Part shown: piece by piece, positions 8,914-63,762 of the stretch | Numbering within the stretch: the stretch's first letter is position 1 | How the letters are laid out: each line of letters starts with the position of its first letter | Origin: a virus | Length of the DNA: 64,000 nucleotides | Virus record (IMG/VR): IMGVR_UViG_3300045988_116240 | Strand: one strand, 5' to 3' | Notes under the pieces: model-generated | Told to the model about the DNA's origin: nothing | Seen by the model: the letters and a program-made list of their open reading frames with translations, nothing else | Database searches by the model: none | Program-made: the position numbers and the translations under genes

Positions 8914-11900
8914 TGTAAAACATTTATATGACGCTATGATTAGCCAAGGATATACGGGACTTGGCGATTTCTCTAATTTTGAGGGTAAGATGAAAGACTC
9001 TGGAAAGAGGAGAATGGTTTATGATTATTTGATACAAGATGATTATTTCTCCGAGATAGGCGATTTCTCCAAGTTCGAGAGTGCCCTAGGGTATTCGCCC
9101 GCAGAGAGGAAAGATTACGTTTCTCAATCAAGCGTTAATCCTGCACCTATCGCTTTAAGACAGGAGGTTGACGTGCCTATGAAGGATCAATCGGAATACG
9201 TTAATCCGTGGACGAACTCACCTGATTACAATTTTGAGTCCTTGCGTAAAAAAGGAAAGATTGAGACCGCTACTCCTCCACCTCCTACGGAGTATGAGAA
9301 GGATTCTTCTTTCATGAATACTTGGGTAGGAGACGCTATACAGAAACTTAACGCAGGAGGAGCCGATCTTGGTGCCGGTATATTTGGGGTCTTGGATAAG
9401 GCGGCTAAAGGGTTGGAATCCGCAACGGGAGGACTGATCCCACGTGGCGGGGCATTCAAGGATATCTCAGATATATTTAAGGCTGATGCGGAGTTTTCCC
9501 GGGCAAGGTCAAACAGATACAATGGCAAGGATTTCACCGATCTTTGGAAAGAAGGGAATTATATGGGTGCCATAGGTGATATAGCCTTGCAAGGCGTAGA
9601 GTCGCTTCCGATGTCAATCGGGGCCATGGCCGCTACAATGGCCGGAGCTCCAGCGGCCGGACTCGCAGGTATAGGGTCAATAGTAGCTAGCCAGAAATAT
9701 GATGATCTTGACCAGAATAACCCAAACATGGGAGAGTTCGCAAAGGTATCTAACGCTATTCTTACAGGTACGGCAGAATCCTTGTCTGAGATGCTGGGCG
9801 CTGGCGTATCCAAGGCTTGGATGTCAACCTTATTCAAGACGTTAGGAAAGGAAAAGGCACAAGAGGCTATCAAGCGTGGCATAATGGGTAAGATGCAAGA
9901 GTTCTATAAAAAATTCGGTATGTTTTTCGAGCCTGTAAATGAAGGTATCGAAGAGGTATCTTCCACGCTAGCGGAGAATATAACGGATAAGATAACAGGT
10001 GCGGATCCGGAAAGGGATTTGACCGATGGTGTATTGCAGAGTTTTGTCTATGGAATGGGAGGCGGCGCTTATTTTACTGGGGCCGGAGCGTTGGCTAAAG
10101 GTGCGCAATACGTAGCGGATAAAATAGGAGGCAAACAGGCTCAGCAGCCTATCACCGATTCCAATGTAACAGATCAAGGCGTTGAAACTCCTCCTCTATT
10201 AACTAAGTCTAGGTTTGCCGAGGCAGAGGAAGAAGGTCGAAATATGACTGATCCGGGCGATATACGGACGGCGAGCAAAAAGATGGAAGAGACAAGGCTT
10301 TCCCTATCTGGAATGGTTCCGGGTTTGGCTAGTACGATAGAAAGCTATGTGGATGATAAAGCTAGCGAGGCCCAAGTGATGAGTCTTCTTGATGGAGTTA
10401 ATGCGGATGCCCGTCCGTTAGCCGAGGATTTCTACGCTGATTATCTCAGGATATCCGGTTTGCAGGATCGTATAGGCGAGGAAATAGACAATGAGGTTGA
10501 AACTTACGTTGCCAATAATATTACTCCTTATGTTACCACGAATCCTGATGGTCAGTCTATCGTTACCATGGCTACGCTTAGCGAGGGAAATGAGGAAAGA
10601 CCTGTGTACGTTAGGAGTATCGAGGGAGATAAGGCCGTTATTTCCGATAACGGACAGGATCGGATGGTCTCGGTGAAAAGGTTGAGCGATATAGTAGAGC
10701 AAGATGCCGGTCATATGAGACGGACCTATGAGGATCAATTATTGGCTAACCGCCAGTCCGAGCTTGACATGACCATGCATCATAATCCCAAGACGCAATT
10801 ACCAAAGCCGGGGTTGATCGTATGGAACGGGGATAATGCGTTTATCCTTCAAGGACAAGATGAGAACGGTGATTGGATCGCTCAACCTGCGGCTTATGAT
10901 AGAGAAACCGGGCAGGTGACAGCCAAGAATGGCTCTTCTCCAGCAATGCCTATAACAGAGAATGAGATTCTTGATCTTCAAGATGCCATATATGACGCTC
11001 AACAAGTTAATGTGGTGTCGCCAGAGGATGATAATGTTGCAAGTGCTGATGCCGAGATAACCTCTGCACCTCCCGTGGAAGATGCGATCAACCAGCCAAC
11101 GAGTGAGATTGAGACGGAAGGTGCCATTGATCAGATAGCACAACCTAGCAATGTGGAGAATCTTTCCATGGTTATGCGAGAAGATGGTACACCCGATTTC
11201 GTATCATCAGGAACGGATATGGCCTTGGATTTCCTCTATGATAAATATGGCGATAAGATGCCAAGGAAGATCGAGGTGACGAGAAAGTCTTTCGATGAAA
11301 GCCTTAAAAAAGCGTCTGATGCCTTGGAAAAGGCGCAAGAGGCATACGATGATGCCCCTATCGGAAAAGAGGATAAGCCTGAGGCCGCATTGATAAAAGC
11401 CCGACAAGAATATGAGGCGATCAAGGTCGAGGCTGATTTCTGGGCTAATCTTGATGATGATATCAAGGAGGCCAGCAAGAAGCCGGGTGATGTCATAGCG
11501 AAGGAGATCTCCGTGATAGGTGATCCTATGAGCGGAGAGGAGCTTGCGGCCATGATGCTGGCTAATGGGGCGATCAAATTGACACGTGACAGTTACAAGA
11601 AAGAGACCGGTGCCGGGAATAATGAGACAGCGAGGATGTTCGGACTGTTCGCCTCTCCGGAGAAAGGCGGTGTTAATATAGAGAGGGCGGGTGAGATATT
11701 GGAGCTTGCCGATAGGGAGAATGGCACTAACTTCTTCGATGAGAACGATACGAACGCCGGAAGGGACGCTATCATAGAGGTCTTGTCTTCCGCTCATACA
11801 CGTGGAGACTTGATCGATTATGTCAAGAGGAACCGTGAGGCGATCGCTGAGCGTGAGAGACAGGCCGAGTACAACGCTTACGCTGAGTGGTGCGAGGAGA

Positions 11901-14900
11901 ATTATCATATGTCCCCGGAAGAATACGAGGCGTATGAGGAAAGCATGGTACGTGATTTCTCGGAGAAACAATTGACTGATGAGGAGCGAGGCGAGCTTGA
12001 TTCGCAAATCGTGGATGAAATACAGGCCATAATTGACGAACAAAATGAAATAGACGCTATCTTAGCGCAAAATAAACCGATAGAAAATGAAAACATTGAA
12101 GGAAATGACGAAAGCGGAGGCGATGGCTTACGCGAGGGAGGCGGCGAGGTACTGCCAAGAGAACAACTTGATCAGACCGGGGGAACTGGAGAGGTTGAGG
12201 GAAGAGAATCGGCTGGCCCCGACATTGATCGCACGGATGGAGCTACACAAGAAGGCTCATCAAGGGGACTAGTTCCTTTTGTCGCTCCTTCTCCAAAGGA
12301 GAATGAGACCCCATTGGACTATGCCGAGCGCATAGTTGAGGCTAAGAGATTGCACGAAGAGGAGCTAAAGGTTGATACCAATCCAACCGAGGCGCAGAAA
12401 GAGGCCGGCAATTACAAGAAAGGCCATATAAAGATAAACGGTTTTGATGTCACCATAGAGCAGCCCGCCGGTTCCGTCCGTTCCGGTAAGGACGCTAGCG
12501 GAAAGGAGTGGTCGCAGGTCATGAATAACACTTACGGTTACATTCGAGGTACTGAAAGTGTGGATGGTGATCATATAGACGTATTCCTAGGTCCGGATAT
12601 GAATAGTGACATGGTGTATGTCGTGGATCAGGTGAATACTGATGGCTCATTCGATGAGCATAAGGTTATGATGGGATTCCCTTCCTTGGAAGACGCTAGG
12701 TCCGCTTACTTGTCAAACTATGAGGAGGGTTGGCAAGGGTTAGGCAACATTACCGGGGTCACGTTGGATGGGTTCAAGAAATGGATTGATTCCTCGACTC
12801 GCAAAACAAAGCCCTTCTATGAGTATAAGGGAATTAAACAGGAGGAAAGCGATATTTCTAAAAATAATGATTCTGATAATTATAGCATTGTTTCCTCCCA
12901 ATATACTACCAAGAAAGGAAAAGTTCTTGATATGTGGCTATTGAAGTTCGGTAATGAATTATCGAAGGAACAGCAACGTGCCGCCAAAGAGCTAGCCAAG
13001 GCTGAAAAGGGTTGGTATGACAGGGAACAGCGAGGTTTCATGATGCGTAGCGATGAAAGCGCAAGGCGGTTGGCTGATACCATTCTTGGCGATACCGATG
13101 CCGTAAGCGATGCGCAACCTATTTCTCTTGAAGACACACGCAGGGTCGTAGAGCCTCAAAAGGTAAATGTAGAAAACCTTATTGGTGATATCAACGATAA
13201 GGGCAAAGCCAAATTGAGCGATCGTACCGTTACCCCTAGCGGTAACCGCCTTGTTACCGATGAACGGTATGCGGAACTCCGTGAGCGCATGCGCAAGAAA
13301 CTAGGCGGTCAAATGAATATGGGTGTTGATCCTGAGATATTGGCGATAGGTACTGAAATGGCGGTTTATCATATAGAGAAAGGCTTGCGTAAGTTCTCTG
13401 ATTACTCAAAGGCTATGATCGATGATCTAGGTGACGCTATACGACCGTATCTTAAATCATTCTACAATGGAGCGAGGGATTTACCGGAAGTAGAAGAGAA
13501 CGGATGGGATAAGGATATGACCACTTATGAGGATGTCCGTTCGTTTGATGTAGCTAATTTTGATAAGCCAGTCCCGGATATAATGGATGCCGCTGAGACC
13601 GTGGTTAAAGAGACTGAGATTGCCGGACAAGCGAGTGCCGCGGAGAAAAAAATAAAAAATAGCCGGAAAAAGCGAACGGACAACAAGGACAAACCATTAC
13701 CTTTGTATGGTAACGATTTATTCACTCCTAATAATATTAAAGACAATGAGCAAGGAAATTCAAGAGCGGATCAAGGCGTGGGAAGAAAAGCACGGGAAGA
13801 GGATCGAGGATCTGAACGCGGAGGAGACCGTGGAGGCGTGCATGGAAGTGATGTGCTTGACACGGAGCGAGGCCGAGGAATACCTATCAGCGACAGCGAC
13901 AAGCGGCCTGTTGTAAGGAATCAAAACAATTTCAGCTTCCCGGAGAAAGGTATTGAGCTTCCTTCCGGTGATATATCCAAGCTAAAAGCCAATATTGAGG
14001 CGATAGAAACGCTGAAAGACGTAGAGGACGGCCAAGGAAAACCTACCCCGGAACAACAAGCCAAGATGTCAAGGTACGTTGGATGGGGAGGTTTGGCCGA
14101 AGCCTTGAACGAAGGCAAATACAACGCACGTGACAACAATTGGACTAAGGATCGAAATTGGAATGATAAGTATCTACGTTATTATGAGAAACTAAAATCC
14201 TTATTAAGTAAAGAAGAGTTCGACAGTGCCGTCCGTTCCACGACAACCTCTCATTATACCCCGTCCGAGGTCGTGGAAAGCTTATGGGGAATAACGGAGA
14301 AACTTGGATTCAAGGGTGGCAATATCAGTGAACCCGCTATGGGTATAGGCAACATAATCGGTATGATGCCTAGGTCTATATCTGAAAACTCAAGTATAAG
14401 TGGGTTCGAGATAGATAGTTTATCCGGTCGTATGGCAAAGGCTTTATATCCTGACGCTAATATAAAGGTACAAGGATATGAGAAAGCGTTTTCTCCAAAC
14501 TCGAAAGACTTAGTTATCACCAACGTCCCATTCGGGAAAAACGCTCCATATGATAAGGTTTTAGATAAGCAATTCAGGAAGAAACTTGGTTCCTCTTATA
14601 ATCTCCATAATTATTTTATCCTAAAGGGGCTTCTGGAATTGAAAGAAGGTGGTCTCGGCGTATTCGTCACGTCCTCGGCTACGATGGATGGGGCCGATAG
14701 TAAGTTCCGTGAGTACGTGAGTGGGAACGGTTATGATCTGGTCGGAGCTATCCGATTGCCTAATGACGCTTTCCAGAAAGGGGCCGGCACGAGTGTCACG
14801 GCCGACATCGTTATATTCCGTAAAAGAAAGTATGGGGAACCTTCGAATGGGATAGGGTTCGCTACTACAACGCAAATAGGTGAAGGAACTTATATGGAGG

Positions 14901-17900
14901 ACGGGGATAAAAGGAGCAAGCCTATCATGGTTAACGAGTATTTCTCCAATCATCCCGATATGATGTTAGGTGATATGATGACTGCTTATGACGCTGGTAG
15001 CGGAGGTCTATATAGTGGAGCGTCCCAGACATTGAAAGCCAAACCCGGGGCCGATTTAAGCAAGGAGCTATTTAACGCTATTGATAACTTACCAAAGAAT
15101 ATCCTATCAGGTGTTGTAGAGACTAAAGGGCCGGAGGTTGTGGGTGACTCCACTTTGAAAGATGGTACTATTACCGTCCAGAATGGCAATGTCTTTGTTT
15201 TAGATGGGGACTCGTTAAAACCGATTAAGGCAAATCCTACGTTCGTTCATAATGGTAAGACCCGGAAAATAGCGGATGCGGTAAATGATTACAATGATAT
15301 AAAGAAAAATCTATACGATCTTATCCATGATGAGCAAACAAAGGGTGTGGATCCCGAGCCCGCGAGGAAAAGGCTAAACAAAGTATATGATGCTTTCGTG
15401 TCCAAATATGGGACACTTAACAGGAACAAGGCTTTGGACGATATTTTCGCCGAGGATGTTGAGCATGGATTACCCTTCTCTTTGGAAACCGTTAGAAGGG
15501 TACCTTCCACGACCGGAAAATCTATGGTATGGGAAGTCTCGAAAGCGGATGGTATCTTGAATAAGCGTGTAAGTTATCCATTCGAGCTACCGACAAAAGC
15601 GGATAATGTCTTGGATGCCGTCAATATAAGCAAGTCATATAAAGGTAATATTGATATACCTTATATCTCGGAGATAACGGGTATGGATGAGGTGAACGTG
15701 ACAAACGAGATACTAGAGAAGGGAATTGCTTATAGGGATCCTGTTACCGGCAATATAATAGATAAGAGCGAATATCTCTCTGGAAACGTAAAAGATAAGT
15801 TGGTAGAGGCTAAGGCGGCCTTGGAAGATCATCCGGAGTTTCAAAAAAACGTGGATGACTTGGAAGCCGTACAGCCAGAACGTATACCCTATGGTGAGAT
15901 AAGTTATCGACTGGGGACTACATGGATCCCGTCTGAGTTTATAAATAATTTCGCTGATAATGTACTGGGTATATCTTACGCCAACGCTAATTTTATCCCG
16001 GAGATCGGTGAGTATATTCTTGATAAGAGGGCGTTCATAACCGATTACGCTAAAGCCGGTCAATTCAAGACTGAGAGAATGGACGCTATAGACGTGTTCA
16101 AGGCCGCTCTTAACCAACGTAAACCCAAGGTTTATGACGAGATTAAATATTATGAGGATGGTAAGCAGAAAACGAGAAGGGTCGTAAACGAGCAGGAGAC
16201 ACAGGCCGTTGCCGAGAAAATATCCGACATGTCCGATAAGTTCGTGGAGTATATTGATTCTAAAACGATGTTTCATGGTCGTATTGAGGACGTGTATAAT
16301 GATAAATATAACAACTATGTACTAAAAAAGTATGACAAACCGGTTTTTGAGCATTATCCTAACGCTAATAAGAATATAACACTTAGGGATCACCAGAGCA
16401 AGGCGGTGCAACGTTGTCTATCCGAGAGCACGTTACTCGCTCACCAAGTCGGTACGGGAAAGACCTTTACCATGATTACGTCCGCTATGGAAATGAGACG
16501 GCTAGGTATAGCGAAGAAACCCATGATCGTTGTCCAAAACGCTACCCTAGAGGATTTCGTCCGTGACTTTTATAAACTGTATCCTTCCGCTAAGATTCTA
16601 TCTCCGACAAAGGAGGAGCGTAACGCCGATAATAGGACAAGGCTGTTCAATCTTATAGCTACCGGAGATTTTGACGCTATCGTTGTCCCACAGTCATTCA
16701 TGGCGTTTATCCCGGATAGCGAGGAAAGGAAAAAGGCATATATCCAAAAGCGTATAGATGATTTTGAGGAGGCTATCGATCGCATAGAAGACAAGGCTTT
16801 ACAGGAGAGATTGAAAAGGGAGGCCAAGAGTATGCGTGATTCTCTGGAAGGTATAAAGAAAGGGAAAAACGTAAAGGGCAAGGCAAAGACAGCGGAGACT
16901 ATCACGGCCAAGACGGAGCGTATTCTTGACAGGCGGACTGATAACGTCATGACGTTTGAGCAAATGGGTGTTGACGCTTTGTTCATTGACGAGGCGCATA
17001 ATTATAAGAAGATCGGGTTTCCAAGCAAGATGTCGAACGTTAAAGGTATCGATACGAGCGCGTCACAAAGGGCTAATAGTATGTTGCTAAAAGCCCAATG
17101 GATATCTGAGAATAATGGTGGTCGAAACGTGGTTCTGGCAACCGGTACCCCTATCACTAATACAATGGCAGAGGTCTGGACTATGATGAATTTCGTGGCA
17201 CCCGATATCCTAGACGCGTATAATATCAATAGCTTTGACGAGTTCGCTACCACTTTTGGAACGGTTGAGCCCTCATTGGAGTTTACCGCTACCGGTAACT
17301 TTAAGATAGCCGAGAGGTTCAAGAGCTATACGAATGTCCCGGAGCTTATAAAGGCGTTCAGGAGCCATACGGACGTTGTCTTGACAGAGGATGTCAAGGA
17401 GTTCAAGGAAGACAAGAATATCCCTAAGTTGAAAGACAATAAGATGACCAATGTCATTGTCGAGAAGAACGAGGACTTGGAGGATGTCATGCAAACCCTT
17501 ATCAAGGAATTAGAGGATTATAACAAATTGACAGGAAAAGAGAAGAAGGATAAGAGCGCGCTACCCTTGGTCGTGTTCAGCAAGGCTAAACAGGCTGCGA
17601 TTGACCTTCGCTTGCTTAATCCTACATTTCCCGACAATCCTGATAGCAAGACAAACAAGGTGGTCGATAACGTGTTGAGATTATATAAGGAGAGCGATAA
17701 GGACAAAGGCACGCAACTTATATTCTGCGATAGTTATCAATCCCCTTCTGAGACTCCAAAAATGGATTTATTCGATGTCGATTTATCTGTTCCTCAGTTT
17801 AATTTGTACAATGATATAAAGGAAAAGCTTATCAAGGGAGGTATTCCGTCTAATCAGATAGCTATCGTTGGCAATTATGAGGGAGAAAGGAGAAACGCCT

Positions 17901-20900
17901 TGTTCGATAAGGTCCGTAATGGGGATGTGCGCATTCTTATTGGAAGCACGGAGAAAATGGGAGTGGGTGTCAACGTGCAAGATCGTCTATTCGCCCTGCA
18001 TCATATTGACGCTCCAATCAGGCCTATGGATTTTGAGCAACGCAACGGTCGTATCTTACGACAAGGAAACTTATACGCCACATGGGATAAACCGGTGAAC
18101 ATCGTCACATATGGCGTTAAAGGTACCCTTGACGCTACCGCCTATGACAGGCTTCGTATAAAACAAAACTTCATCAACCAAATGATGAAAGGCGATATAT
18201 CGTCTCGTGTAATGGAGGAGCAAGACGATAGTGATCCGTCTGGAATGACATTTAGTGAGATGGCGGCGACGTTATCAGGAGATAAGACCGCCCAACTGCT
18301 GTTTGTGGCACAGAACAAGTTAAAGAAATTGCAAAACTCCAAGAGGAGCGATCTTAACAGTAAGTCTTCCATGCGTGACTCTATATCTAACTCCAAACTT
18401 AGGATACAAGAATACAACAGCCGGAAGGATATCATGGAAAGGAACGCCAATATCGTAAAAGAAAACTTCCCTGATGGGGTTGAGTCCGTGACTGTTAAAG
18501 GCAATACTTTCAGCGATGGTATATCGAATGAGCTTACGCCCATTATTGATGATTACTATGATAGATATACGCTTGACAGAAACACCCCTCCTCTGAAAAT
18601 CAGTCTCAATGGAGGAAAAGGCGAGGCAATCGTGCATTTCAATGAAGGTATGATGGTCTATAGCTTATATTTAGGAAAGGAAAAACTGGTTGAGAATCGT
18701 GATTTTAGCGGCGGCAAGGGTTTGATGGCTAGCATTGACAGGCAGTTGGGGATTCCCGCTAAATCCGTCTCAGATATAGCCGCTAAAATAAAGGCAGAGG
18801 AAAACAAGATAGCGGGATTAGAGGAAGCCGTTAAGAAACCGTGGGGAAAAGAGGATGAACTTAATGCGGCTCAGGCAGAGGTTAATGATCTGCAGAGACA
18901 ATTAGTTGAAAAAGCTAAAGCTGAGGATATTCAGTTAGAATCAACTCTTGACGTTGATGGTACGTTGGTAAAAGAGGAAGGAGAGACTCGATTTCGATTC
19001 ATGGGAGTAGATACAACTAATAATCAGGATAATGTAAGTTCTATTGAATCCTCAATCAACGATTGGTCAAACAAGCTTAATACCCCTGTCAGGGTAATCC
19101 ATGACGTGGACGATATAAACGATACGGATGAGAATATGTTGGCCCGTAAGAGAGATTCCAAAGGCTGGTATGATACTTCTACCGGGGAGATAGTCATAGT
19201 ATCACCTAATTCCACGTCCGTAGGTGACGCTCAAAGGACTTTCCTCCATGAGGTGGTAGGGCATCATGGGTTACGTGAGCTATTCAGGGATGATTTCGAT
19301 ACTTTCCTTGATAACGTGTATCGGAACGCCAACGAGGATATCCGGAAAAATATCATTGATCGGACTAAAGGCAATCCTCTTAACTTGCGTGAGGCTACAG
19401 AGGAATACCTCGCTGAATTAGCGGAACGTGGTTTCGATAACAAGGCCGAGCGTTCGTTATGGGAAAAGATCAAGGACTCTTTTCTTGATATGTTGAGAAA
19501 GGCAGGTATTAGTCTTGATTTCAAGTTATCGGATAATGACCTCCGTTATATTCTCTGGAGAAGCTATAAGAACTTGGAGCAAGGAAACTTGATGGATGTG
19601 GCCGAGGATATCGTGATGAGAAATAGATTAAGTCTTAACAATATAAATTTGAACGAAAATGGATCAATCGCAAGAGATATTGAACCTGAAAAAGGAAAAC
19701 AACCTTCTGAAACAAAAGGTACTGGAAGGGAACTCGAGACAATCGATGGCGTTGATGAGAACGGAAACGAAAGTGAACGAGACCATATCGACAAACCAAG
19801 GGGAGTTGAAAACGCTATTGACGGAACTGAAAACGCAACTGACCGAAATGGAAAAAAGACTGACGGCCAAGTTGACAACGATGGAGACCAACTTGACGGA
19901 GGAGATACGGGCGATAGGAACGGAAGTGTCCGGGATGGAATCGGCGGTGATCGGACTGTCATCGGACGTGCAGGATCTGAAAACAAGGGTAGAGGCGTTG
20001 GAGAAAGCGTAAGGGAAAAGACGGATGATTTCTCTTTCGCCGAGAAAACAATCCGTTTTAGGGAGAACGCGCGGAATGAGTCGGTATTGTTCGCTGATAA
20101 TGATATCCAAGTAGTAGAGAAACAGGTAGGTTCCGCCAAAGATCAATATGAGCGTACCCTATCTACATCGTCCTATCAATTTCAGGAGGCGTTTCAGGAT
20201 TCTATGCTAGGGCTTAAAACATTGCAGGATGCCGTGGCAAAGGCAACGAGGAGTCGTATATTGGATTATGAGAACGCTTATATGGCCGAGAATGCCCTTT
20301 CCTCCGTTAATGAAGCGGAGTTCAACGCTTATAGGAAAGCGGCTTTCGAGCCTATCTTAAAAGCGATCTCACGTTTGGAAAAGATGGGATCCACCATTGA
20401 TGAGATAAGGGATTACCTTATAACCAAGCATGGTATTGAGCGTAACAGGGAAATGGCCGTTAAACGAGTGTTGTCACAAAACTCGGAAACATATAAATCC
20501 CTGCTTGACGAGTATATCGGGAGAAGGAATGAGATACGTGAGAACGGTAGGTCTTGGGAAGAGCAGCAATCAGAAATGGATAGGCTTTCCGAGGAATACG
20601 GAGCTAATCTTTCTGATGATTTCAGCGGATTCACGTCCATGTATCCTAACGAGGATAACACGGGGTATGATCCGGATTCCGCAAGGAGATACGTATTGGA
20701 TTACGAGTCAAGATATGATACATCGGAATTATCGGCCTCTGTCAAAAGAGCCACTGACGCTATATTGGCAAAGCAACGGGATAGCGGGCTTATGAGCCAA
20801 AATACGTTTGATTCGATCAGCGATATGTATCAGTTCTATGTGCCTTTGCGTGGATGGGAGGAGACTACGGCAGATGAGGTTTACGCTTATCTTACATCCG

Positions 20901-23122
20901 AAAGCCAAACGTTCAACGCCCCTATAAAGACTGTCGTTGGGCGAAAGAGCAAGGCTGACGATCCTATAGCGACGATCGCTAATATGGCAGAGAGCGGAAT
21001 CATGCAAGGGAATAGGAACTTGATGAAGCAAAAGTTTTTGACAATGGTACAAAACCATAAGACGGATCTCGTGAGCGTAAGCGAAATGTGGGTTCGTCTT
21101 GACGAGGCTTCCGGTGAGTGGATCGCCGTTTTCCCGGATATACCATCTAACGCCAATCCGGAACAGGTGGAGTCTATCGTGGAATCTTTCAACAAACGCA
21201 TGGAGGAGCTATCCAATGAAAAAGGATCTAATGTTAGACGTTCAAGGGATGCTATAGGGATACCTTACAAGATATTGCCAAAGGACTTGAAGGAGCATCA
21301 AGTGATCGTAAAGAGAGCCGGCAAAGAATACTTACTTACCATAAACGGGAACCCAAGGGCCGCTCAAGCGTTGAACGGGCTTACAAACCCGGATAATACG
21401 AAAGGATGGTTTGGTACCGTGGAGAGATACGCCGGATGGCTGAATCGAAACTTGGCGGCTAATTTTACGACACGTAACCCGAATTTCATGGTAAGTAACT
21501 TCCTCCGTGACGCTCTTTATTCGAATACTACCGTATGGGTCAAGGAAAGTCCTGTATACGCATGGAAGTTCAATAAGAATTTCGCTATGGTAAACCCGAT
21601 CAATATGTATCGTCTGGTCAAGGGGTATGAGAACGGTACGTTGGATATGAGCGATCCATTGAATAAGGCATATCATGATTTTGTAATGAGAGGAGGAGAG
21701 ACCGGATACACCAATTTGAGAGACGTGGAAGCCAAGAAGAAGGCGATCCAAAAAGAACTTCAATACTCCAAGCAAAAGGTATCTATCGGAAAGGCTTTGA
21801 AAATACTAGGCGAATGGATGGACTTGTTCAATAAGAGCGTAGAGAATTGCGCTAGGTTCGCCGCGTTCATTACTTCTAGGGAAATGGGGCGGAGCATGGA
21901 TAAATCCATTTATGACGCTAAGGAGATATCCGTAAACTTCAATAAGAAAGGGGCGGGTTCAAAATTCTTGAATACTGAGGGGCAGACCAAGATAGGTAAC
22001 GCTAGCGCTTTCACGTCCGGATTGTCAAGATCCATGTATGTGTTTTGGAACGCTGGTGTACAAGGTATGTATAATTTCGGAAGGCTAGCCAAGGATAATC
22101 CCAAGAAATTCTTGGGGTTAGCGTCCTCTTTCTATTTACTTGGCACTATCATGCCTATGATCGCTGCCGCTTTTGGGGATGATGAAGATGATGATTACTA
22201 CGATCTTCCGGAATACGTGAGACGTAATAATATCTGTTTCCGTAACGGTGGAGGAAATTGGATTACAATTCCTATGCCCATAGAGTTAAGGGCTATATAT
22301 GGACTAGGAGAAATGTCTTCTGGAATAGTTTCCGGAAAGGAGAAGTATACCGATAAAAAGATGGCCATGAAGATAGCGGAGCAAATGTCACAGGTTCTTC
22401 CTTTGGACATGATGGAGGGAGGTGGAGGATTCTCCGCTTTCGTCCCAAGCTCGGTAAAGCCATTGATTGAGGCCGGAGATAACAAGGATTGGACAGGTTT
22501 GCCTTTATATAAGGATAACGATTTCAACAAGGGTATGCCTGAATGGACGAAGGCTTTCAAGAGCGTGGATCCCGCTATATTGGCGATGACTGAATATGCC
22601 AATAAGTTGACCGGTGGAGATAAATACACTATCGGTGCGGTTAATCTGAACCCGGCCATTATAGAGCATATATTGGACGGCTATTTCGGAGGTATCGAGG
22701 CTACACGTGCGCAGATGGTCAAATCCGCTGAAACCGCTTGGGGTAGTCGTGATTTTGACTGGAGGAATATCCCTGTCGGGAACCGTCTTATAAAAAGTGG
22801 TGATGAGCGGACGAAAAAGAAAGCCATAGATAACGCTTATTATGAGAATTTGGAGGAAATGGATAAGATCGGACAAAGATTGAGAGGATATCGTAAAGAA
22901 TTGTCTAATCCACAGAACGATAGTTTTGATATAGCAGAGTATCAGAAAAAATTGAATGATCTTATGATGAGCGATGAATATCGTGGATATGTAGAGTTTA
23001 ATAATCTTAACAAATTGTATCAATCAATGGGTGAGTATTTGAAGAAGGTAGATGATGAAAGATTGGAAATGGAGTTATACGATTTGAAAGCTATGATGAA
23101 TGAGATAGCTAATGGTAAATAG
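8858..23122 (+). CDS. giant polyvalent protein (4754 aa): pyrophosphatase-like + N6-adenine MTase + SNF2/DEAD helicase + zincin-like + C-terminal membrane-associated region
   Basis: A single uninterrupted 14.3 kb ORF. Motifs are listed in the sub-features below. The true start may be the ATG at 8903 (MDSNVKH). Confidence 0.9.
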   Translation: MKEEQKIQTKNTAGFMDSNVKHLYDAMISQGYTGLGDFSNFEGKMKDSGKRRMVYDYLIQDDYFSEIGDFSKFESALGYSPAERKDYVSQSSVNPAPIALRQEVDVPMKDQSEYVNPWTNSPDYNFESLRKKGKIETATPPPPTEYEKDSSFMNTWVGDAIQKLNAGGADLGAGIFGVLDKAAKGLESATGGLIPRGGAFKDISDIFKADAEFSRARSNRYNGKDFTDLWKEGNYMGAIGDIALQGVESLPMSIGAMAATMAGAPAAGLAGIGSIVASQKYDDLDQNNPNMGEFAKVSNAILTGTAESLSEMLGAGVSKAWMSTLFKTLGKEKAQEAIKRGIMGKMQEFYKKFGMFFEPVNEGIEEVSSTLAENITDKITGADPERDLTDGVLQSFVYGMGGGAYFTGAGALAKGAQYVADKIGGKQAQQPITDSNVTDQGVETPPLLTKSRFAEAEEEGRNMTDPGDIRTASKKMEETRLSLSGMVPGLASTIESYVDDKASEAQVMSLLDGVNADARPLAEDFYADYLRISGLQDRIGEEIDNEVETYVANNITPYVTTNPDGQSIVTMATLSEGNEERPVYVRSIEGDKAVISDNGQDRMVSVKRLSDIVEQDAGHMRRTYEDQLLANRQSELDMTMHHNPKTQLPKPGLIVWNGDNAFILQGQDENGDWIAQPAAYDRETGQVTAKNGSSPAMPITENEILDLQDAIYDAQQVNVVSPEDDNVASADAEITSAPPVEDAINQPTSEIETEGAIDQIAQPSNVENLSMVMREDGTPDFVSSGTDMALDFLYDKYGDKMPRKIEVTRKSFDESLKKASDALEKAQEAYDDAPIGKEDKPEAALIKARQEYEAIKVEADFWANLDDDIKEASKKPGDVIAKEISVIGDPMSGEELAAMMLANGAIKLTRDSYKKETGAGNNETARMFGLFASPEKGGVNIERAGEILELADRENGTNFFDENDTNAGRDAIIEVLSSAHTRGDLIDYVKRNREAIAERERQAEYNAYAEWCEENYHMSPEEYEAYEESMVRDFSEKQLTDEERGELDSQIVDEIQAIIDEQNEIDAILAQNKPIENENIEGNDESGGDGLREGGGEVLPREQLDQTGGTGEVEGRESAGPDIDRTDGATQEGSSRGLVPFVAPSPKENETPLDYAERIVEAKRLHEEELKVDTNPTEAQKEAGNYKKGHIKINGFDVTIEQPAGSVRSGKDASGKEWSQVMNNTYGYIRGTESVDGDHIDVFLGPDMNSDMVYVVDQVNTDGSFDEHKVMMGFPSLEDARSAYLSNYEEGWQGLGNITGVTLDGFKKWIDSSTRKTKPFYEYKGIKQEESDISKNNDSDNYSIVSSQYTTKKGKVLDMWLLKFGNELSKEQQRAAKELAKAEKGWYDREQRGFMMRSDESARRLADTILGDTDAVSDAQPISLEDTRRVVEPQKVNVENLIGDINDKGKAKLSDRTVTPSGNRLVTDERYAELRERMRKKLGGQMNMGVDPEILAIGTEMAVYHIEKGLRKFSDYSKAMIDDLGDAIRPYLKSFYNGARDLPEVEENGWDKDMTTYEDVRSFDVANFDKPVPDIMDAAETVVKETEIAGQASAAEKKIKNSRKKRTDNKDKPLPLYGNDLFTPNNIKDNEQGNSRADQGVGRKAREEDRGSERGGDRGGVHGSDVLDTERGRGIPISDSDKRPVVRNQNNFSFPEKGIELPSGDISKLKANIEAIETLKDVEDGQGKPTPEQQAKMSRYVGWGGLAEALNEGKYNARDNNWTKDRNWNDKYLRYYEKLKSLLSKEEFDSAVRSTTTSHYTPSEVVESLWGITEKLGFKGGNISEPAMGIGNIIGMMPRSISENSSISGFEIDSLSGRMAKALYPDANIKVQGYEKAFSPNSKDLVITNVPFGKNAPYDKVLDKQFRKKLGSSYNLHNYFILKGLLELKEGGLGVFVTSSATMDGADSKFREYVSGNGYDLVGAIRLPNDAFQKGAGTSVTADIVIFRKRKYGEPSNGIGFATTTQIGEGTYMEDGDKRSKPIMVNEYFSNHPDMMLGDMMTAYDAGSGGLYSGASQTLKAKPGADLSKELFNAIDNLPKNILSGVVETKGPEVVGDSTLKDGTITVQNGNVFVLDGDSLKPIKANPTFVHNGKTRKIADAVNDYNDIKKNLYDLIHDEQTKGVDPEPARKRLNKVYDAFVSKYGTLNRNKALDDIFAEDVEHGLPFSLETVRRVPSTTGKSMVWEVSKADGILNKRVSYPFELPTKADNVLDAVNISKSYKGNIDIPYISEITGMDEVNVTNEILEKGIAYRDPVTGNIIDKSEYLSGNVKDKLVEAKAALEDHPEFQKNVDDLEAVQPERIPYGEISYRLGTTWIPSEFINNFADNVLGISYANANFIPEIGEYILDKRAFITDYAKAGQFKTERMDAIDVFKAALNQRKPKVYDEIKYYEDGKQKTRRVVNEQETQAVAEKISDMSDKFVEYIDSKTMFHGRIEDVYNDKYNNYVLKKYDKPVFEHYPNANKNITLRDHQSKAVQRCLSESTLLAHQVGTGKTFTMITSAMEMRRLGIAKKPMIVVQNATLEDFVRDFYKLYPSAKILSPTKEERNADNRTRLFNLIATGDFDAIVVPQSFMAFIPDSEERKKAYIQKRIDDFEEAIDRIEDKALQERLKREAKSMRDSLEGIKKGKNVKGKAKTAETITAKTERILDRRTDNVMTFEQMGVDALFIDEAHNYKKIGFPSKMSNVKGIDTSASQRANSMLLKAQWISENNGGRNVVLATGTPITNTMAEVWTMMNFVAPDILDAYNINSFDEFATTFGTVEPSLEFTATGNFKIAERFKSYTNVPELIKAFRSHTDVVLTEDVKEFKEDKNIPKLKDNKMTNVIVEKNEDLEDVMQTLIKELEDYNKLTGKEKKDKSALPLVVFSKAKQAAIDLRLLNPTFPDNPDSKTNKVVDNVLRLYKESDKDKGTQLIFCDSYQSPSETPKMDLFDVDLSVPQFNLYNDIKEKLIKGGIPSNQIAIVGNYEGERRNALFDKVRNGDVRILIGSTEKMGVGVNVQDRLFALHHIDAPIRPMDFEQRNGRILRQGNLYATWDKPVNIVTYGVKGTLDATAYDRLRIKQNFINQMMKGDISSRVMEEQDDSDPSGMTFSEMAATLSGDKTAQLLFVAQNKLKKLQNSKRSDLNSKSSMRDSISNSKLRIQEYNSRKDIMERNANIVKENFPDGVESVTVKGNTFSDGISNELTPIIDDYYDRYTLDRNTPPLKISLNGGKGEAIVHFNEGMMVYSLYLGKEKLVENRDFSGGKGLMASIDRQLGIPAKSVSDIAAKIKAEENKIAGLEEAVKKPWGKEDELNAAQAEVNDLQRQLVEKAKAEDIQLESTLDVDGTLVKEEGETRFRFMGVDTTNNQDNVSSIESSINDWSNKLNTPVRVIHDVDDINDTDENMLARKRDSKGWYDTSTGEIVIVSPNSTSVGDAQRTFLHEVVGHHGLRELFRDDFDTFLDNVYRNANEDIRKNIIDRTKGNPLNLREATEEYLAELAERGFDNKAERSLWEKIKDSFLDMLRKAGISLDFKLSDNDLRYILWRSYKNLEQGNLMDVAEDIVMRNRLSLNNINLNENGSIARDIEPEKGKQPSETKGTGRELETIDGVDENGNESERDHIDKPRGVENAIDGTENATDRNGKKTDGQVDNDGDQLDGGDTGDRNGSVRDGIGGDRTVIGRAGSENKGRGVGESVREKTDDFSFAEKTIRFRENARNESVLFADNDIQVVEKQVGSAKDQYERTLSTSSYQFQEAFQDSMLGLKTLQDAVAKATRSRILDYENAYMAENALSSVNEAEFNAYRKAAFEPILKAISRLEKMGSTIDEIRDYLITKHGIERNREMAVKRVLSQNSETYKSLLDEYIGRRNEIRENGRSWEEQQSEMDRLSEEYGANLSDDFSGFTSMYPNEDNTGYDPDSARRYVLDYESRYDTSELSASVKRATDAILAKQRDSGLMSQNTFDSISDMYQFYVPLRGWEETTADEVYAYLTSESQTFNAPIKTVVGRKSKADDPIATIANMAESGIMQGNRNLMKQKFLTMVQNHKTDLVSVSEMWVRLDEASGEWIAVFPDIPSNANPEQVESIVESFNKRMEELSNEKGSNVRRSRDAIGIPYKILPKDLKEHQVIVKRAGKEYLLTINGNPRAAQALNGLTNPDNTKGWFGTVERYAGWLNRNLAANFTTRNPNFMVSNFLRDALYSNTTVWVKESPVYAWKFNKNFAMVNPINMYRLVKGYENGTLDMSDPLNKAYHDFVMRGGETGYTNLRDVEAKKKAIQKELQYSKQKVSIGKALKILGEWMDLFNKSVENCARFAAFITSREMGRSMDKSIYDAKEISVNFNKKGAGSKFLNTEGQTKIGNASAFTSGLSRSMYVFWNAGVQGMYNFGRLAKDNPKKFLGLASSFYLLGTIMPMIAAAFGDDEDDDYYDLPEYVRRNNICFRNGGGNWITIPMPIELRAIYGLGEMSSGIVSGKEKYTDKKMAMKIAEQMSQVLPLDMMEGGGGFSAFVPSSVKPLIEAGDNKDWTGLPLYKDNDFNKGMPEWTKAFKSVDPAILAMTEYANKLTGGDKYTIGAVNLNPAIIEHILDGYFGGIEATRAQMVKSAETAWGSRDFDWRNIPVGNRLIKSGDERTKKKAIDNAYYENLEEMDKIGQRLRGYRKELSNPQNDSFDIAEYQKKLNDLMMSDEYRGYVEFNNLNKLYQSMGEYLKKVDDERLEMELYDLKAMMNEIANGK
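12404..12830 (+). other. domain: inorganic-pyrophosphatase-like module of the giant protein
   Basis: NYKKGHIKINGFDVTIEQPAGSVRSG...YGYIRGTESVDGDHIDVFLG...DEHKVMMGF resembles the family I PPase signature YGxIPxT..DGDPxDVLV. Confidence 0.45.
13930..14960 (+). other. domain: N6-adenine DNA methyltransferase module
   Basis: SRYVGWGGLAEAL; AdoMet motif I ISEPAMGIGNIIG (about 14330); catalytic motif IV DLVITNVPFGK (14522-14536). Confidence 0.75.
16350..18150 (+). other. domain: SF2 (SNF2/DEAD-like) helicase module
   Basis: Motif I AHQVGTGKTF (16441-16470), motif II FIDEAHNYKK (16982-17002), motif III LATGTPITN, motif V GSTEKMGVGVNVQ, motif VI QRNGRILRQGN (18038-18070). Confidence 0.8.
19000..19560 (+). 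other. domain: zincin-like metallopeptidase-type module (non-classical HExxxH)
   Basis: TFLHEVVGHHGLRELF (19241-19270). The spacing is HEVVGH rather than HExxH, so catalytic competence is uncertain. Confidence 0.45.
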
Positions 23123-56972: not shown

Positions 56973-57389
56973 TCAATCCTTTATGCCTTTCTGATCCCTC
57001 AAATCCTTTATTCGTTTCTTGTAATCTTCGATCATCAATTGGTAATCGAATGCCGAGAGTTTGGAGATAGAGTGCTTTTTCACCTCAAGCTCGTTAATTA
57101 CTTTTACGCCATACTTATTTATCAAGCCCTTGGCATAACCGATGTTGTTGCCCTCGTCGAAACGGTTGCAAGACCTGCATTGAGCGTTGCAGTTTCTCTC
57201 GCTGTATCTGGTACCCATATGTGACCGGTTGACGAAATGTCCGCAATCTGCCTCTTTCCAATGCACGATCTTCCCACAGCTTATACAACGGCAATAACCG
57301 TTGCCGTCAGCGTCCCTTATTCTTATAAATACGGAGAATATACGGTCTAGTCTGCTCTTTAAAGAGGTTATGTTCTTTACTTTTCCCAT
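56973..57389 (-). CDS. NinG/Rap-family recombination endonuclease
   Basis: FSVFIRIRDADGNGYCRCISCGK...ADCGHFVNRSHMGTRYSERNCNAQCRSCNRF matches the lambda NinG pattern. Confidence 0.7.
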   Translation of the reverse strand: MGKVKNITSLKSRLDRIFSVFIRIRDADGNGYCRCISCGKIVHWKEADCGHFVNRSHMGTRYSERNCNAQCRSCNRFDEGNNIGYAKGLINKYGVKVINELEVKKHSISKLSAFDYQLMIEDYKKRIKDLRDQKGIKD

Positions 57390-57511
57390 GGATGTTTTCT
57401 TTTTTCGTTTATTAATAAGAATCCTGCCAAGATCACTGCTATAAGTCCGAGTATTGCGGTGATAAGGTACATGGCCATTGTCAAGTGATCTAAATTCTGT
57501 ATTGTTTCCAT
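57377..57511 (-). CDS. small single-pass membrane protein
   Basis: Trimmed to METIQNLDHLTMAMYLITAILGLIAVILAGFLLINEKRKHPWEK. The longer track ORF would run through the tRNA-like gene. Confidence 0.4.
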   Translation of the reverse strand: METIQNLDHLTMAMYLITAILGLIAVILAGFLLINEKRKHPWEK

Positions 57512-57529
57512 AATTAGATTTGTTATTTG

Positions 57530-57730
57530 TGATGGTAGCGGGACTCGAACCCGCATGAGTGGAGTTTTCTCAGGACTCTCACCTGATAGTTTTGTTATTG
57601 GCACGTTGCGGTGACATTCGGCCTTACCCGTTATACTTCCTTTGGCTAGTTCAGTTTATTTTACGATAACCTTCATTCAACCACTCTATAAGAAATTAAC
57701 TTTAGCGTCTACCAATTCCGCCATACCACC
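57530..57730 (-). tRNA. class-II-like tRNA gene interrupted by a ~125-nt insert (intron-like or giant variable arm)
   Basis: The 5' part GGTGGTATGGCGGAATTGGTAGACGC is a Leu-type acceptor plus D-arm. The 3' part is GCGGGTTCGAGTCCCGC-TACCATC-A. The acceptor halves are complementary (one G-U). The insert is closed by GAGTGG/CCACTC. Confidence 0.5.
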
Positions 57731-57821
57731 GTGTTTGCCCCGCATATCCTCACGGACGGCGGGGATAATCATTCTAACCCAAATCTAATACCATGAAAAA
57801 CACACTCTAATATTAATATCC

Positions 57822-63694: not shown

Positions 63695-63762
63695 GTAGGC
63701 CTCCGGGAGTCGAACCCGGCTATTCCCATGTTAGGGACGCTCTGCCGATAAGCTAAGGCCTT
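63695..63762 (-). tRNA. aberrant tRNA-like element (shortened anticodon arm) or tRNA pseudogene
   Basis: AAGGCCT-TA-GCTTATCGGCAGAGC-G-TCCC-TAACAT-GGGA-ATAG-CCGGGTTCGACTCCCGG-AGGCCTA-C. The T- and D-arms are good, pair 1-72 is A-A, and the anticodon arm has a 4-bp stem with a 6-nt loop. Confidence 0.35.

Follow-up and report, generated by a model that had tools for sequence, protein, structure and literature searches.

A leucine tRNA-like frame in phages that apparently displays interchangeable structured RNA modules in place of the decoding half

Bacterial class II leucine tRNAs consist of a 7-bp acceptor stem, a D-arm, a T-arm, and an extra arm that emerges 2 nt before the T-stem, with U8, A14, A15-U48, G18G19, and A73 at their usual positions. 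These features are shared by the element described here, which lies on the minus strand of a 64,000-nt stretch of viral DNA (IMG/VR record IMGVR_UViG_3300045988_116240; hereafter the window). However, the region from D-arm to T-arm measures 45-236 nt in elements of this kind, as compared with about 35 nt in tRNA-Leu, and without an anticodon arm the element cannot decode. The element also resembles tmRNA, since its ends form an acceptor stem and a T-arm, and since a large structured body, reached through a closing helix, stands in place of the decoding half; the enzymes of tRNA maturation would be expected to process it. Unlike tmRNA, it has a true D-stem, a leucine-type instead of an alanine-type identity (pair 3-70 is U-A, and there is no G3-U70), no tag ORF, and a hypervariable body, whereas the tmRNA body is conserved. 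ARAGORN called no tmRNA, and RF00023 had no match at the element. Ponchon and Dardel reportedly engineered a 'tRNA scaffold', in which the acceptor, D, and T arms are kept and the anticodon region is replaced by a structured cargo closed by a stem. The same design principle, with processing and stabilisation of the RNA left to the cell, appears here; the engineered scaffold is artificial, and the element would be its natural counterpart.

Several other RNAs are similar in part. YrlA, a bacterial Y-RNA-like non-coding RNA that also occurs in phages, joins a tRNA-like acceptor/T/D module to a functional stem. Its topology is permuted, with the termini in the Ro-binding stem and a loop closing the acceptor-like stem, whereas the termini of the present element form the acceptor stem. 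The group I intron of cyanobacterial and plastid tRNA-Leu(UAA) likewise forms a long insert between D-arm and T-arm. There the insert, of at least about 200 nt and with a conserved catalytic core, separates U34 from A35 in an anticodon arm that is otherwise complete; no such position, arm, or core was found in the present element. The protein-RNA anti-CRISPR AcrIIIA1 uses fragments of host tRNA and not a phage tRNA-like RNA. RNAC and RNAD of phage T4 have tRNA-like ends. These two RNAs (species 1 and 2) are small, stable, and encoded together with tRNAs (PMC3014915, PMC9697503). They belong to a tRNA cluster, whereas the elements of the Bacteroides-phage group are mostly solitary and outside tRNA arrays (114 of 119). 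Besides tRNA, no Rfam family matched the element or its relatives, and the class is described neither in Rfam nor in the searchable literature. Overall, the element apparently belongs to a large undescribed class of phage RNA, in which the top half of a leucine tRNA is combined with interchangeable modules.

The element is 201 nt long (57730 to 57530, minus strand), and encloses 150 nt between a leucine-type acceptor stem with D-arm on one side and a T-arm followed by the complementary acceptor strand on the other. An initial annotation had described this region as a Leu-type tRNA gene split by a structured insert, and the sequence features that it listed are all present at the coordinates it gave, on the minus strand, including the class II 5' part, the T-arm and acceptor of the 3' part, and the span between the complementary halves. 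The 5' strand of the acceptor stem, GGUGGUA (DNA GGTGGTA; 57730-57724), pairs at 7/7 positions with the 3' strand UACCAUC (57537-57531), and one of the pairs is G-U. The class II leucine-type D-arm (GCGGAATTGGTAGACGC / GCGGAAUUGGUAGACGC; 57721-57705) contains A14, A15, G18G19, and A20a, and is identical to that of bona fide phage tRNA-Leu genes. The position of the anticodon arm is taken by a stub hairpin, UAAAG-UUAAUUU-CUU(A)UA (57704-57687), whose stem is conserved and whose loop of 7-10 nt differs in sequence among close relatives. The stub hairpin is not an anticodon arm, and the proposal that it presents UAA, UUA, or AAU is not supported. A giant arm of 130 nt, the cargo module, occupies the variable-arm position (57686-57557). 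It is closed by GAGUGG (57686-57681) with CCACUC (57562-57557) and stops 2 nt short of the T-stem, which is the commonest arrangement in the class. U48 (57555) precedes the T-arm GCGGG-UUCGAGU-CCCGC (57554-57538), and the element ends with the discriminator A73 (57530), which is followed by C (57529); CCA is not encoded. A cleavage site for RNase P is predicted between 57731 and 57730, at the 5' end of the acceptor stem. The structural prerequisites for RNase P and for tRNA 3' processing, namely the coaxial stack of acceptor and T-arm and the D/T elbow, are present.

The cargo module contains a nearly invariant block, UAACGGGUAAGGCCGAAUGUCACCGCAACGUG (57633-57602), which is kept in 5/5 divergent relatives and includes two short hairpins, CGG-GUAAGG-CCG (57630-57619) and CAC-CGCAAC-GUG (57613-57602). 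A T-loop-like hairpin, UCAGG-UGAGAGU-CCUGA (57586-57570), lies closer to the T-arm. This hairpin and the 6-bp closing stem had both been recognised in the initial annotation, and both covary among relatives: the closing stem GAGUGG/CCACUC is replaced by GAUAGG/CCUAUC, with 2 compensatory pairs, and the hairpin stem UCAGG/CCUGA by CUUGG/CCAAG, with three. In the alignment of the window's cargo family (A4), pairing was 100% with 13 compensatory pairs, as compared with 0-1 in slid controls, and 0/500 shuffles reached the observed level; the module alignments are small, with 4-5 sequences from about 3-4 independent lineages. A second module type contains a pseudoknot supported by three pair types. 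The minimum free energy (MFE) of the window element is -47.5 kcal/mol, with z = -0.24 relative to shuffles, and the MFE fold lacks the closing stem that covariation supports. Therefore, folding energy alone gives no support, and the structural evidence is comparative.

Within a module type, cargo identity is 98.0-100%, as compared with 87-99.7% in the flanks. Cargo conservation equalled or exceeded that of both flanks in 7/8 groups and exceeded that of at least one flank in 8/8. Part of this high conservation could stem from a recent horizontal spread of the cassettes and not from purifying selection. In the viral collection, all 14 matches to the block UAACGGGUAAGGCCGAAUGUCACCGCAACGUG sit inside this tRNA frame, which argues against a cargo that moves or stands on its own. 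Further matches in metagenomes came either from relatives with other frames or from unrelated coding sequence of GC-rich bacteria. No ribozyme, riboswitch, or group I intron was matched by Rfam at permissive thresholds in the cargos of 22 loci and the window. Nested tRNA-like pieces were seen in some cargos.

The exact 5' half of the element is common to more than 118 viral contigs, where 40 variants were seen, with lengths of 104-220 nt. The same D-arm also occurs with other acceptor frames, in elements of 96-287 nt from diverse environments. Members were found in Bacteroides and Parabacteroides genomes and in human-gut metagenomes. Among the fetched loci, a matching T-arm with a complementary acceptor strand followed within 420 nt in 214 of 232 5' halves; the controls gave 17/232 when the acceptors were swapped and 5/193 when the windows were displaced, and the two-half arrangement is far beyond chance. 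Comparison of homologues shows that both frame and module covary. Across 58 frames, 193 compensatory cells cover 7/7 acceptor pairs and 4/5 T-stem pairs, although the percentage paired in this alignment is partly circular, since the 3' halves were chosen by complementarity. Across 23 acceptor frames, the two halves covary and stay complementary over 100-200 nt. The class II D-arm is invariant in the 58 long frames, and the dominance of the Leu type is partly by design, since the searches were seeded with a Leu-type D-arm. U48 is present in 85/85 long elements, beside hypervariable sequence, and A73 in 80/85; C follows at position 74 in 20/23 independent frames. Position 26 is U in 69/85 long elements and mostly a purine in real tRNA-Leu. 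Long forms account for about half of the matches to this D-arm pattern in a second viral scan. No uninterrupted ancestor with the exact 5' half was found in 185,579 species genomes, where 5/5 matches carry cargo. Some frames are degenerate, for example that of locus L251.

The cargos, sampled from roughly 260 loci, are 45-236 nt long and fall into 43 clusters without detectable mutual similarity, which corresponds to at least 43 unrelated module types. No motif is shared across types in the 43 clusters, apart from a boundary sequence in one subgroup. The modules behave as cassettes: syntenic phages hold unrelated modules in one frame, and an identical module occurs in different frames. Across the class, the cargo sits at the variable-arm position, at the anticodon-arm position, or at both.

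The leader of the window element contains a 23-nt 5' seed, GUGUUUUUCAUGGUAUUAGAUUU (57803-57781, minus strand), which is identical at 23/23 nt to the FopS consensus; its match to the FopS/GibS-like model RF04319 scores 32.2 bits (E 0.0075), under the gathering score of 56. The seed is an optional part of the leader: at least 33 of 124 related loci have it. Overlapping it is TAGATTTG (57787-57780), 57 nt upstream of the tRNA-like 5' end, which we take to be a Bacteroides-type -7 promoter box (consensus TAnnTTTG). The spacing of this predicted promoter is fixed at 51-59 nt in related leaders, and leaders without the FopS seed also have a -7 box at the fixed distance (TAACTTTG, TAGCTTTG). A hairpin follows, CCCCGC...GCGGGG with a GUGA (GNRA) tetraloop (57764-57738), and the linker CAAACAC (57737-57731) joins it to the tRNA-like element. 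The loop motif GUCYGUGARGAU occurs at a fixed distance of 27 nt in 56/124 loci, and the stem varies with the leader type (CCCCGC/GCGGGG vs GCCUGC/GGCGGGC). The likeness to the FopS and GibS sRNAs of Bacteroides lies in the 23-nt seed, a similar linker, and then a hairpin; however, the leader here has no U-tract terminator, and its hairpin is instead joined through CAAACAC, over a distance of 7 nt, to the tRNA-like element. The function of the FopS sRNA and its seed has been described (PMC11697453).

Downstream of the element, an ORF for a 44-aa membrane protein (METIQNLDHL...; 57511-57377, minus strand) begins 19 nt past its end, and the two probably share one transcript. Nine cargo types are followed by this same 44-aa ORF, which starts 18-20 nt away. 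The upstream genes vary by locus and encode a radical-SAM protein, a 245-aa protein, a 270-aa protein, or DUF4494. No consistently associated neighbouring protein was found across the loci compared, and no RNA-processing enzyme in the neighbourhood. Pairing between the FopS-like seed and the downstream start region appears in the MFE structure at -13.9 kcal/mol; it was dismissed as a meaningful interaction, since its energy is unremarkable (rank 289 of 12,791) and synteny can explain the co-occurrence.

What such an element does may be explained in several ways, one of which, implied by the initial annotation, is that a novel small intron is removed to yield a decoding tRNA of 75-90 nt. This is very improbable. 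When introns are allowed, ARAGORN does arrive at a 78-nt Leu(GAG) product whose loop, CUGAGAA, looks canonical, and relatives do pass the gathering score of the Rfam tRNA model as a tRNA with an insertion, at 29-40 bits end to end. However, neither splice site nor anticodon is conserved among relatives: within one module family the best splice is Leu(GAG) in the window, Phe(GAA) in L245, and none in u38, and variants that share one identical frame received eight anticodon identities overall. The anticodon stem of the 78-nt product has 4 bp and an A-C mismatch, and both its splice site and its 'anticodon loop' fall inside the covarying hairpin 57586-57570. The lack of a conserved spliced product also argues against a bulge-helix-bulge (archaeal-type) tRNA intron. 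The window element itself was not called by ARAGORN in default mode, and it was not found with RF00005 at the gathering threshold of 29 bits, to which it aligns partially at 15 bits. While the 7-bp acceptor stem, D-arm, T-arm, and conserved tertiary nucleotides are canonical, an arm with a conserved anticodon (5-bp stem, 7-nt loop, U33, R37, positions 27-43) is absent; an anticodon arm at the standard position was found in 0/85 distinct long elements, as compared with 47/54 normal-length genes with the same D-arm. No insertion into an intact anticodon loop with conserved exon junctions was found. The group I intron model RF00028 had no match in the window region at E <= 10 or in 9 loci at E <= 1, and none at its gathering threshold in the 13 loci with the longest inserts, those of 200-236 nt included; no cargo type matched. 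Among those ORFs of the window that could be annotated, none was found to encode an RNA ligase or a splicing endonuclease; many of the window's ORFs have no Pfam match. The element is very probably not an intron-interrupted tRNA gene; of the options that had been offered for the insert, an expansion arm or embedded sRNA is close to the evidence and the small intron is not. A decaying tRNA pseudogene or recombination scar without function can be regarded as extremely doubtful. The fast turnover of phage tRNA genes, the degenerate frames, and the nested tRNA-like pieces would fit such decay, but the complementarity held by covariation in 23 frames, the invariant tertiary positions, the leader and promoter at a fixed distance, and the abundance of long forms would not.

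The leucine-type frame itself raises the possibility of a non-decoding adaptor that accepts leucine, or of a decoy for leucyl-tRNA synthetase (LeuRS), with the module directing where or when it acts. The reported determinants for LeuRS suffice without the anticodon and variable arms (PMC9976931). The identity set of A73, A14, A15-U48, G18G19, A20a, and the T-loop/D-loop contacts is kept in full, and only the two arms that LeuRS can dispense with are replaced; the constancy of U48 and the frequency of C74 agree with this. However, the LeuRS rules were derived from E. coli and Aquifex and not from Bacteroides, the same positions serve the elbow seen by RNase P and the CCA-adding enzyme, the dominance of the Leu type owes something to the D-arm seeding, and no enzyme that depends on leucyl-tRNA is encoded nearby. 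The leucine-type frame may reflect mere ancestry and the room that class II offers for an extra arm, and not the use of LeuRS. Action through the aminoacyl end or through titration of LeuRS is unlikely, though worth some weight, and can be compatible with a scaffold. It is rather unlikely that the top half acts as punctuation only, as an RNase P/RNase Z signal that separates the leader or upstream cistron from the mRNA, with the insert as filler. The downstream ORF follows at 18-20 nt in 34 loci whatever the module, the upstream FopS-like unit has no U-tract terminator of its own, and the 43 clusters share no motif and appear unconstrained in length (45-236 nt). But a minimal stem would suffice for such a signal, whereas the modules are long, show compensatory changes together with a 32-nt block that hardly varies, and within each type surpass at least one of the mostly coding flanks in conservation; furthermore, the element of Weissella phage WC29P3 has its own terminator and no ORF following closely. 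The c4 RNA of phages P1 and P7 and the CI RNA of P4 are RNase P substrates, and the element may be thought of as a similar antisense or immunity RNA, whose variable loops would pair with targets in the same phage, in competing phages, or in host mRNAs. The occurrence of discrete 'specificity types' without mutual similarity at one syntenic position of the early region, and the adjoining FopS-like antisense seed, are in line with this proposal. It is nevertheless quite unlikely, since exact complementarity within the element's own 10-64 kb locus reaches only 9-12 nt, which is the chance level, and the modules are largely base-paired instead of forming long single strands.

We favour, with moderate confidence, a scaffold derived from tRNA-Leu that displays a selected, cassette-like structured RNA, in which the frame serves as a chassis for processing and stabilisation. 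A proposed evolution and mode of action of this scaffold can be described as follows. The ancestor may have been a class II leucine tRNA, of which the top half was kept (acceptor, D-arm, T-arm, U8, A14, A15-U48, G18G19, and A73), while the decoding half would have been exchanged for a 150-nt folded module made up of the stub hairpin and the 130-nt arm; the window element would represent one allele of a cassette-like locus. Transcription would start from the Bacteroides-type promoter (-7 box 57787-57780), or result from read-through of an early operon. The frame would then be recognised by the tRNA maturation enzymes of the host, with an RNase P cut at 57731/57730 and 3' trimming after A57530 or C57529, followed by CCA addition. 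Processing would release a stable RNA of about 200 nt; at the same time, it would define where the leader RNA ends and where the downstream mRNA begins. Within the released RNA, the module may be the trans-acting specificity part, most likely a protein- or RNA-binding domain, and the frame may possibly bind LeuRS or accept leucine. These steps, from processing and stability to aminoacylation and module action, we infer from sequence. More tentatively, phages of several host phyla might share a natural leucine-tRNA scaffold, fit for tRNA processing and perhaps chargeable by LeuRS, that presents at least 43 module types as trans-acting effectors. Such effectors would be, for example, aptamer-like decoys against host proteins of defence or RNA metabolism, or leucylated adaptors with a role outside the ribosome.

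If the scaffold reading is true, a substantial share of apparent phage tRNA-Leu genes would be non-decoders, and a hidden class of structured RNA would exist that annotation pipelines miss or mislabel as proteins. The engineered tRNA scaffold would then have a precedent in nature and, if the modules are effectors, phage non-coding RNAs would gain a new functional class. A strict chassis with unrelated modules, conservation of each module, and reassortment is the signature of conflict or specificity loci. The link to the FopS-like seed suggests that phages tap the host sRNA network for polysaccharide-uptake genes. The class is tractable, since the ends of the RNA are predicted to the nucleotide, transcripts can be assayed for leucylation and for cleavage by RNase P, and at least two cultured phages carry the element. 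These are Bacteroides phage BF1-TP2, in which the element occupies PQ571263 3829-3944 and is mislabelled as protein gp8, and Weissella phage WC29P3, in whose annotation it was missed.

The element is 201 nt long, runs from 57730 to 57530 on the minus strand, and contains all the sequence features listed in the initial annotation. In 5' to 3' order on that strand, these are the acceptor 5' strand GGUGGUA (57730-57724), the leucine-type D-arm GCGGAAUUGGUAGACGC (57721-57705), a stub hairpin UAAAG-UUAAUUU-CUU(A)UA (57704-57687), a closing stem of GAGUGG (57686-57681) with CCACUC (57562-57557), an internal hairpin UCAGG-UGAGAGU-CCUGA (57586-57570), the T-arm GCGGG-UUCGAGU-CCCGC (57554-57538), the acceptor 3' strand UACCAUC (57537-57531), and the discriminator A (57530). 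The element is called neither by ARAGORN in default mode nor by Rfam at gathering thresholds. Its minimum free energy is -47.5 kcal/mol (z = -0.24 against shuffles); folding energy alone is uninformative, and therefore the case for the element rests on comparison with related sequences.

In a scan of viral contigs, the exact 26-nt 5' half of the element was found in more than 118 contigs among the matches listed, and every complete copy has a T-arm and the complementary acceptor strand downstream. The sequence between the halves is very diverse, with 40 distinct variants of 104-220 nt; the variant of the window also occurs in human-gut metagenome contigs, and a 116-nt variant in BF1-TP2, a cultured Bacteroides fragilis phage, is annotated as hypothetical protein gp8. 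The same 5' half is present in five of 185,579 species-representative genomes (Bacteroides, Parabacteroides, and one MAG labelled Chloroflexota); all five carry the cargo-bearing form, and no uninterrupted tRNA with this 5' half was found in that set. When this D-arm was searched for next to other acceptor stems, the hits comprised some 55 ordinary tRNA-Leu genes of 80-86 nt and some 48 long forms of 96-287 nt, the latter with many different, internally complementary acceptor stems and from varied environments, huge phages included. The cultured Weissella phage WC29P3 (OP172841), whose host belongs to the Firmicutes, also has an unannotated long form, of about 128 nt (about 10268-10395). This form has the acceptor GCAUGUG/CACAUGC and a terminator of its own downstream; its closing stem is GAUGAUG/CAUCAUG, and its T-loop is a variant, UGCAAAU.

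The two halves of the frame, i.e. the acceptor stem with the D-arm and T-arm, belong together. Among 5' halves with enough downstream sequence, 214 of 232 are followed within 420 nt by a T-arm and a complementary acceptor strand, compared with 17/232 after swapping in the acceptor of a different locus and 5/193 when the window was displaced. Changes on both sides were seen for each of the seven acceptor pairs, and for four of the five T-stem pairs, in a set of 58 distinct frames that comprise 23 acceptor sequences. The frame alignment holds 193 compensatory cells and is 99.3% paired, versus 39-47% with slid partners, a percentage that is partly circular because the 3' halves were chosen by complementarity, so that the swapped and displaced control rates are the fair measure of half-to-half pairing. 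In the 58 frames, little or no variation is seen at U8, G9, the D-stem, A14, A15, G18G19, and the UUCRA T-loop. U48, directly 5' of the T-stem, is present in 85/85 long elements, is not imposed by the selection criteria for them, and has a neighbouring base that is free to vary. Position 26 is U in 69/85 long elements and mostly a purine in normal tRNA-Leu. In 20 of the 23 independent frames the discriminator is followed by C (position 74), although few of the long elements encode a complete CCA, and that of the window does not; the genome usually reads A-C-A.

The initial annotation had considered a tRNA gene split by a novel small intron, the removal of which would give a decoding tRNA. The only Rfam model that matches is indeed tRNA, end to end across relatives at 29-40 bits, and ARAGORN with introns allowed does return a 124-nt intron for the window element, with a 78-nt Leu(GAG) product that has a 4-bp anticodon stem and an A-C mismatch. 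However, a canonical anticodon arm at the standard position, present with a leucine anticodon in 47/54 normal-length genes with this D-arm, occurs in 0/85 long elements with it, and the hairpin after the D-arm has a loop of 7 to 10 nt among close relatives. The ARAGORN anticodons are inconsistent, being Met, His, Ala, Lys, Cys, Tyr, Leu or Phe for variants that share one identical frame; the equivalent splice gives Phe(GAA) in a related locus (L245) and no model in another variant (u38). Moreover, the 3' splice site and the 'anticodon loop' (CUGAGAA) that ARAGORN proposes both fall within the hairpin UCAGG/CCUGA, whose pairing is demonstrated by the variant CUUGG/CCAAG. Models of group I introns, self-cleaving ribozymes, and riboswitches matched no cargo type at permissive thresholds, inserts of 200-236 nt included. 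No RNA ligase, splicing endonuclease, reverse transcriptase, or nucleotidyltransferase domain turned up in those ORFs of the window that could be annotated, although many of the window's ORFs lack a Pfam match. The intron-bearing decoding tRNA was rejected on the missing anticodon arm, the discordant anticodons, the splice within a proven hairpin, and the lack of a group I match; judged by sequence comparison, the element is neither a decoding tRNA nor an intron-interrupted one. The comparisons show that the top half of the tRNA has been kept by selection and the decoding arm lost.

The RNA enclosed by the frame is conserved within a type and unrelated between types. The 85 distinct cargos, of 45-236 nt, form 43 clusters with no detectable similarity between them and no common motif. 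Within types, cargo identity is 98.0-100% versus 87-99.7% in the flanks; in 7/8 groups neither flank is more conserved than the cargo, and in 8/8 the cargo surpasses one flank or both. For the type in the window, identity is 99.9%, against 97.9% upstream and 87.3% downstream, and a 32-nt block (57633-57602, minus) is almost invariant. The alignment of this family, of five divergent sequences in three different frames, has a consensus with 100% of cells paired and 13 pairs changed on both sides; the slid controls all gave 0-1 such pairs and the shuffles 6.3 +/- 1.5, none of 500 reaching the observed number. The supported helices are the closing, acceptor, and T-stems and the T-loop-like hairpin. 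A second cargo type contains a hairpin-loop pseudoknot with a central pair found as U-A, A-U, and G-C. One downstream ORF is shared by nine cargo types and begins 18-20 nt after the element, a given cargo type can be found in more than one acceptor frame (L129, a 146-nt type, and L245), and in the viral collection every copy of the window's cargo block lies within a frame. Overall, the alignments indicate that the cargo is a selected, structured, and swappable module. Some cargos (L011:3502-3655, L121:4200-4375, and L205) enclose a nested mini tRNA-like unit with its own D-arm-like and T-arm segments. In one cargo type (u26-u33; L003, L009, L053, L067, and related loci) a homopolymeric tract of 7 to 10 G differs in length between otherwise near-identical contigs, which could reflect slippage-prone sequence or assembly error.

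Frame-constrained folding placed one or two arms between the D-arm and the T-arm in 47/57 non-redundant elements. Most commonly, exactly 2 nt separate the last arm from the T-stem, as is the case for a class II variable arm. In two-arm elements, that of the window included, the second arm is usually the larger (17 vs 9); others have a large arm directly after the D-arm and a normal-sized variable-arm-like hairpin before the T-arm. Therefore, the class can be described as a class II cloverleaf with either or both lower arms replaced.

The most likely working scheme is as follows. The frame would make the transcript a substrate of RNase P, cut between 57731 and 57730, and would also direct 3' end maturation and CCA addition, giving a stable RNA of about 200 nt in which the module may act as the effector; no c4/CI-type cis target was found. 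In this phage, the same cuts may also fix where a FopS-like/hairpin leader ends and where the downstream mRNA begins. A73, A15-U48, G18G19, A20a, and the D/T-loop contacts are reported to suffice for bacterial LeuRS, which needs neither of the two arms lost in the elements (PMC9976931). The positions retained are exactly these, and therefore leucylation or LeuRS binding is plausible and a serious possibility, although the same positions are needed simply for the tRNA elbow and the searches were seeded with the leucine D-arm.

With its integrase, P22-like portal, and T7 gp14-like protein adjoining a 4,754-aa ORF, the window is, by predicted gene content, a temperate podovirus-like Bacteroides phage. 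The 4,754-aa ORF (8858-23122, plus), directly after the T7 gp14-like internal virion protein gene, presumably encodes a giant ejection or internal virion protein. The element is located in a lambdoid 'nin'-type early region, with the minus-strand order RecT, MBL-fold protein, DUF4494, 270-aa protein, element, 44-aa membrane protein, NinG, and HNH. Seven nt before it ends a FopS-like unit (57738-57803, minus), which consists of a sub-threshold FopS/GibS seed match (57803-57781; 32 bits vs 56) whose 23 nt all agree with the family consensus, then a linker and a hairpin with a GUGA cap (57764-57738) followed by CAAACAC, and has no U-tract terminator; a -7 box TAnnTTTG is predicted at 57787-57780 (minus). 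The hairpin lies at a fixed distance in 56/124 related loci and the -7 box 51-59 nt upstream of the element even in seedless leaders, which suggests a dedicated promoter. In other loci, the element directly follows an upstream stop codon. Elements are mostly solitary, unlike ordinary phage tRNAs, and no consistently associated neighbouring gene was found across related loci. FopS sRNAs use the seed to repress translation of SusC-like transporters, and a phage copy was noted previously (PMC11697453); the present copy could likewise modulate host glycan-uptake porins.

The seed (57781-57803) is also complementary to 57505-57525, at the start of the 44-aa membrane-protein ORF (57511-57377, minus), and the minimum free energy structure of the 299-nt precursor pairs the two, with the tRNA-like element enclosed between them. 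At -13.9 kcal/mol this duplex is unremarkable, coming 289th among 12,791 windows. Both segments occur in 25 loci, one alone in 9 and 6, and neither in 74, a co-occurrence that may be mere synteny. A mechanical ORF list gives a 75-aa GTG-start ORF (57377-57604, minus) overlapping the 3' third of the element; most probably the actual gene here is the 44-aa ORF from the ATG at 57511. Elsewhere in the window, ordinary tRNA genes for Met-CAU and Arg-CCU (733-806 and 1897-1969, minus) lie near a tyrosine-integrase-like gene (4785-6269, plus) at one end and may mark, with it, the prophage attachment region.

The element resembles tmRNA in topology, with a tRNA-like domain closing a large body, and the engineered tRNA scaffold in design; T4 RNAC/RNAD and YrlA are loose analogues. 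When set against the defining tests of tmRNA, decoding tRNA, and group I intron-bearing tRNA, it fell outside each. Rfam 15 has no family for the class, and no description was found in the openly available full-text literature. There is a real chance that the class, to be placed among tRNA-like non-coding RNAs, is a new functional one. Other unusual RNA genes were seen in the same material. A tRNA-like gene of the window (63695-63762, minus) is reported by ARAGORN as 'tRNA-???' with an abnormal anticodon loop, and related loci hold other odd 82-nt tRNA-like genes (GGATGGTTAGCTTATCGGTTAGAGCT...), also without a normal anticodon arm. In one locus (L244:4331-4931) and its neighbours, a ROOL RNA (RF03087, 358 bits) lies inside a phage tRNA array that also holds long 'tRNAs' of 133 and 154 nt, and another locus (L158) carries a phage tmRNA.
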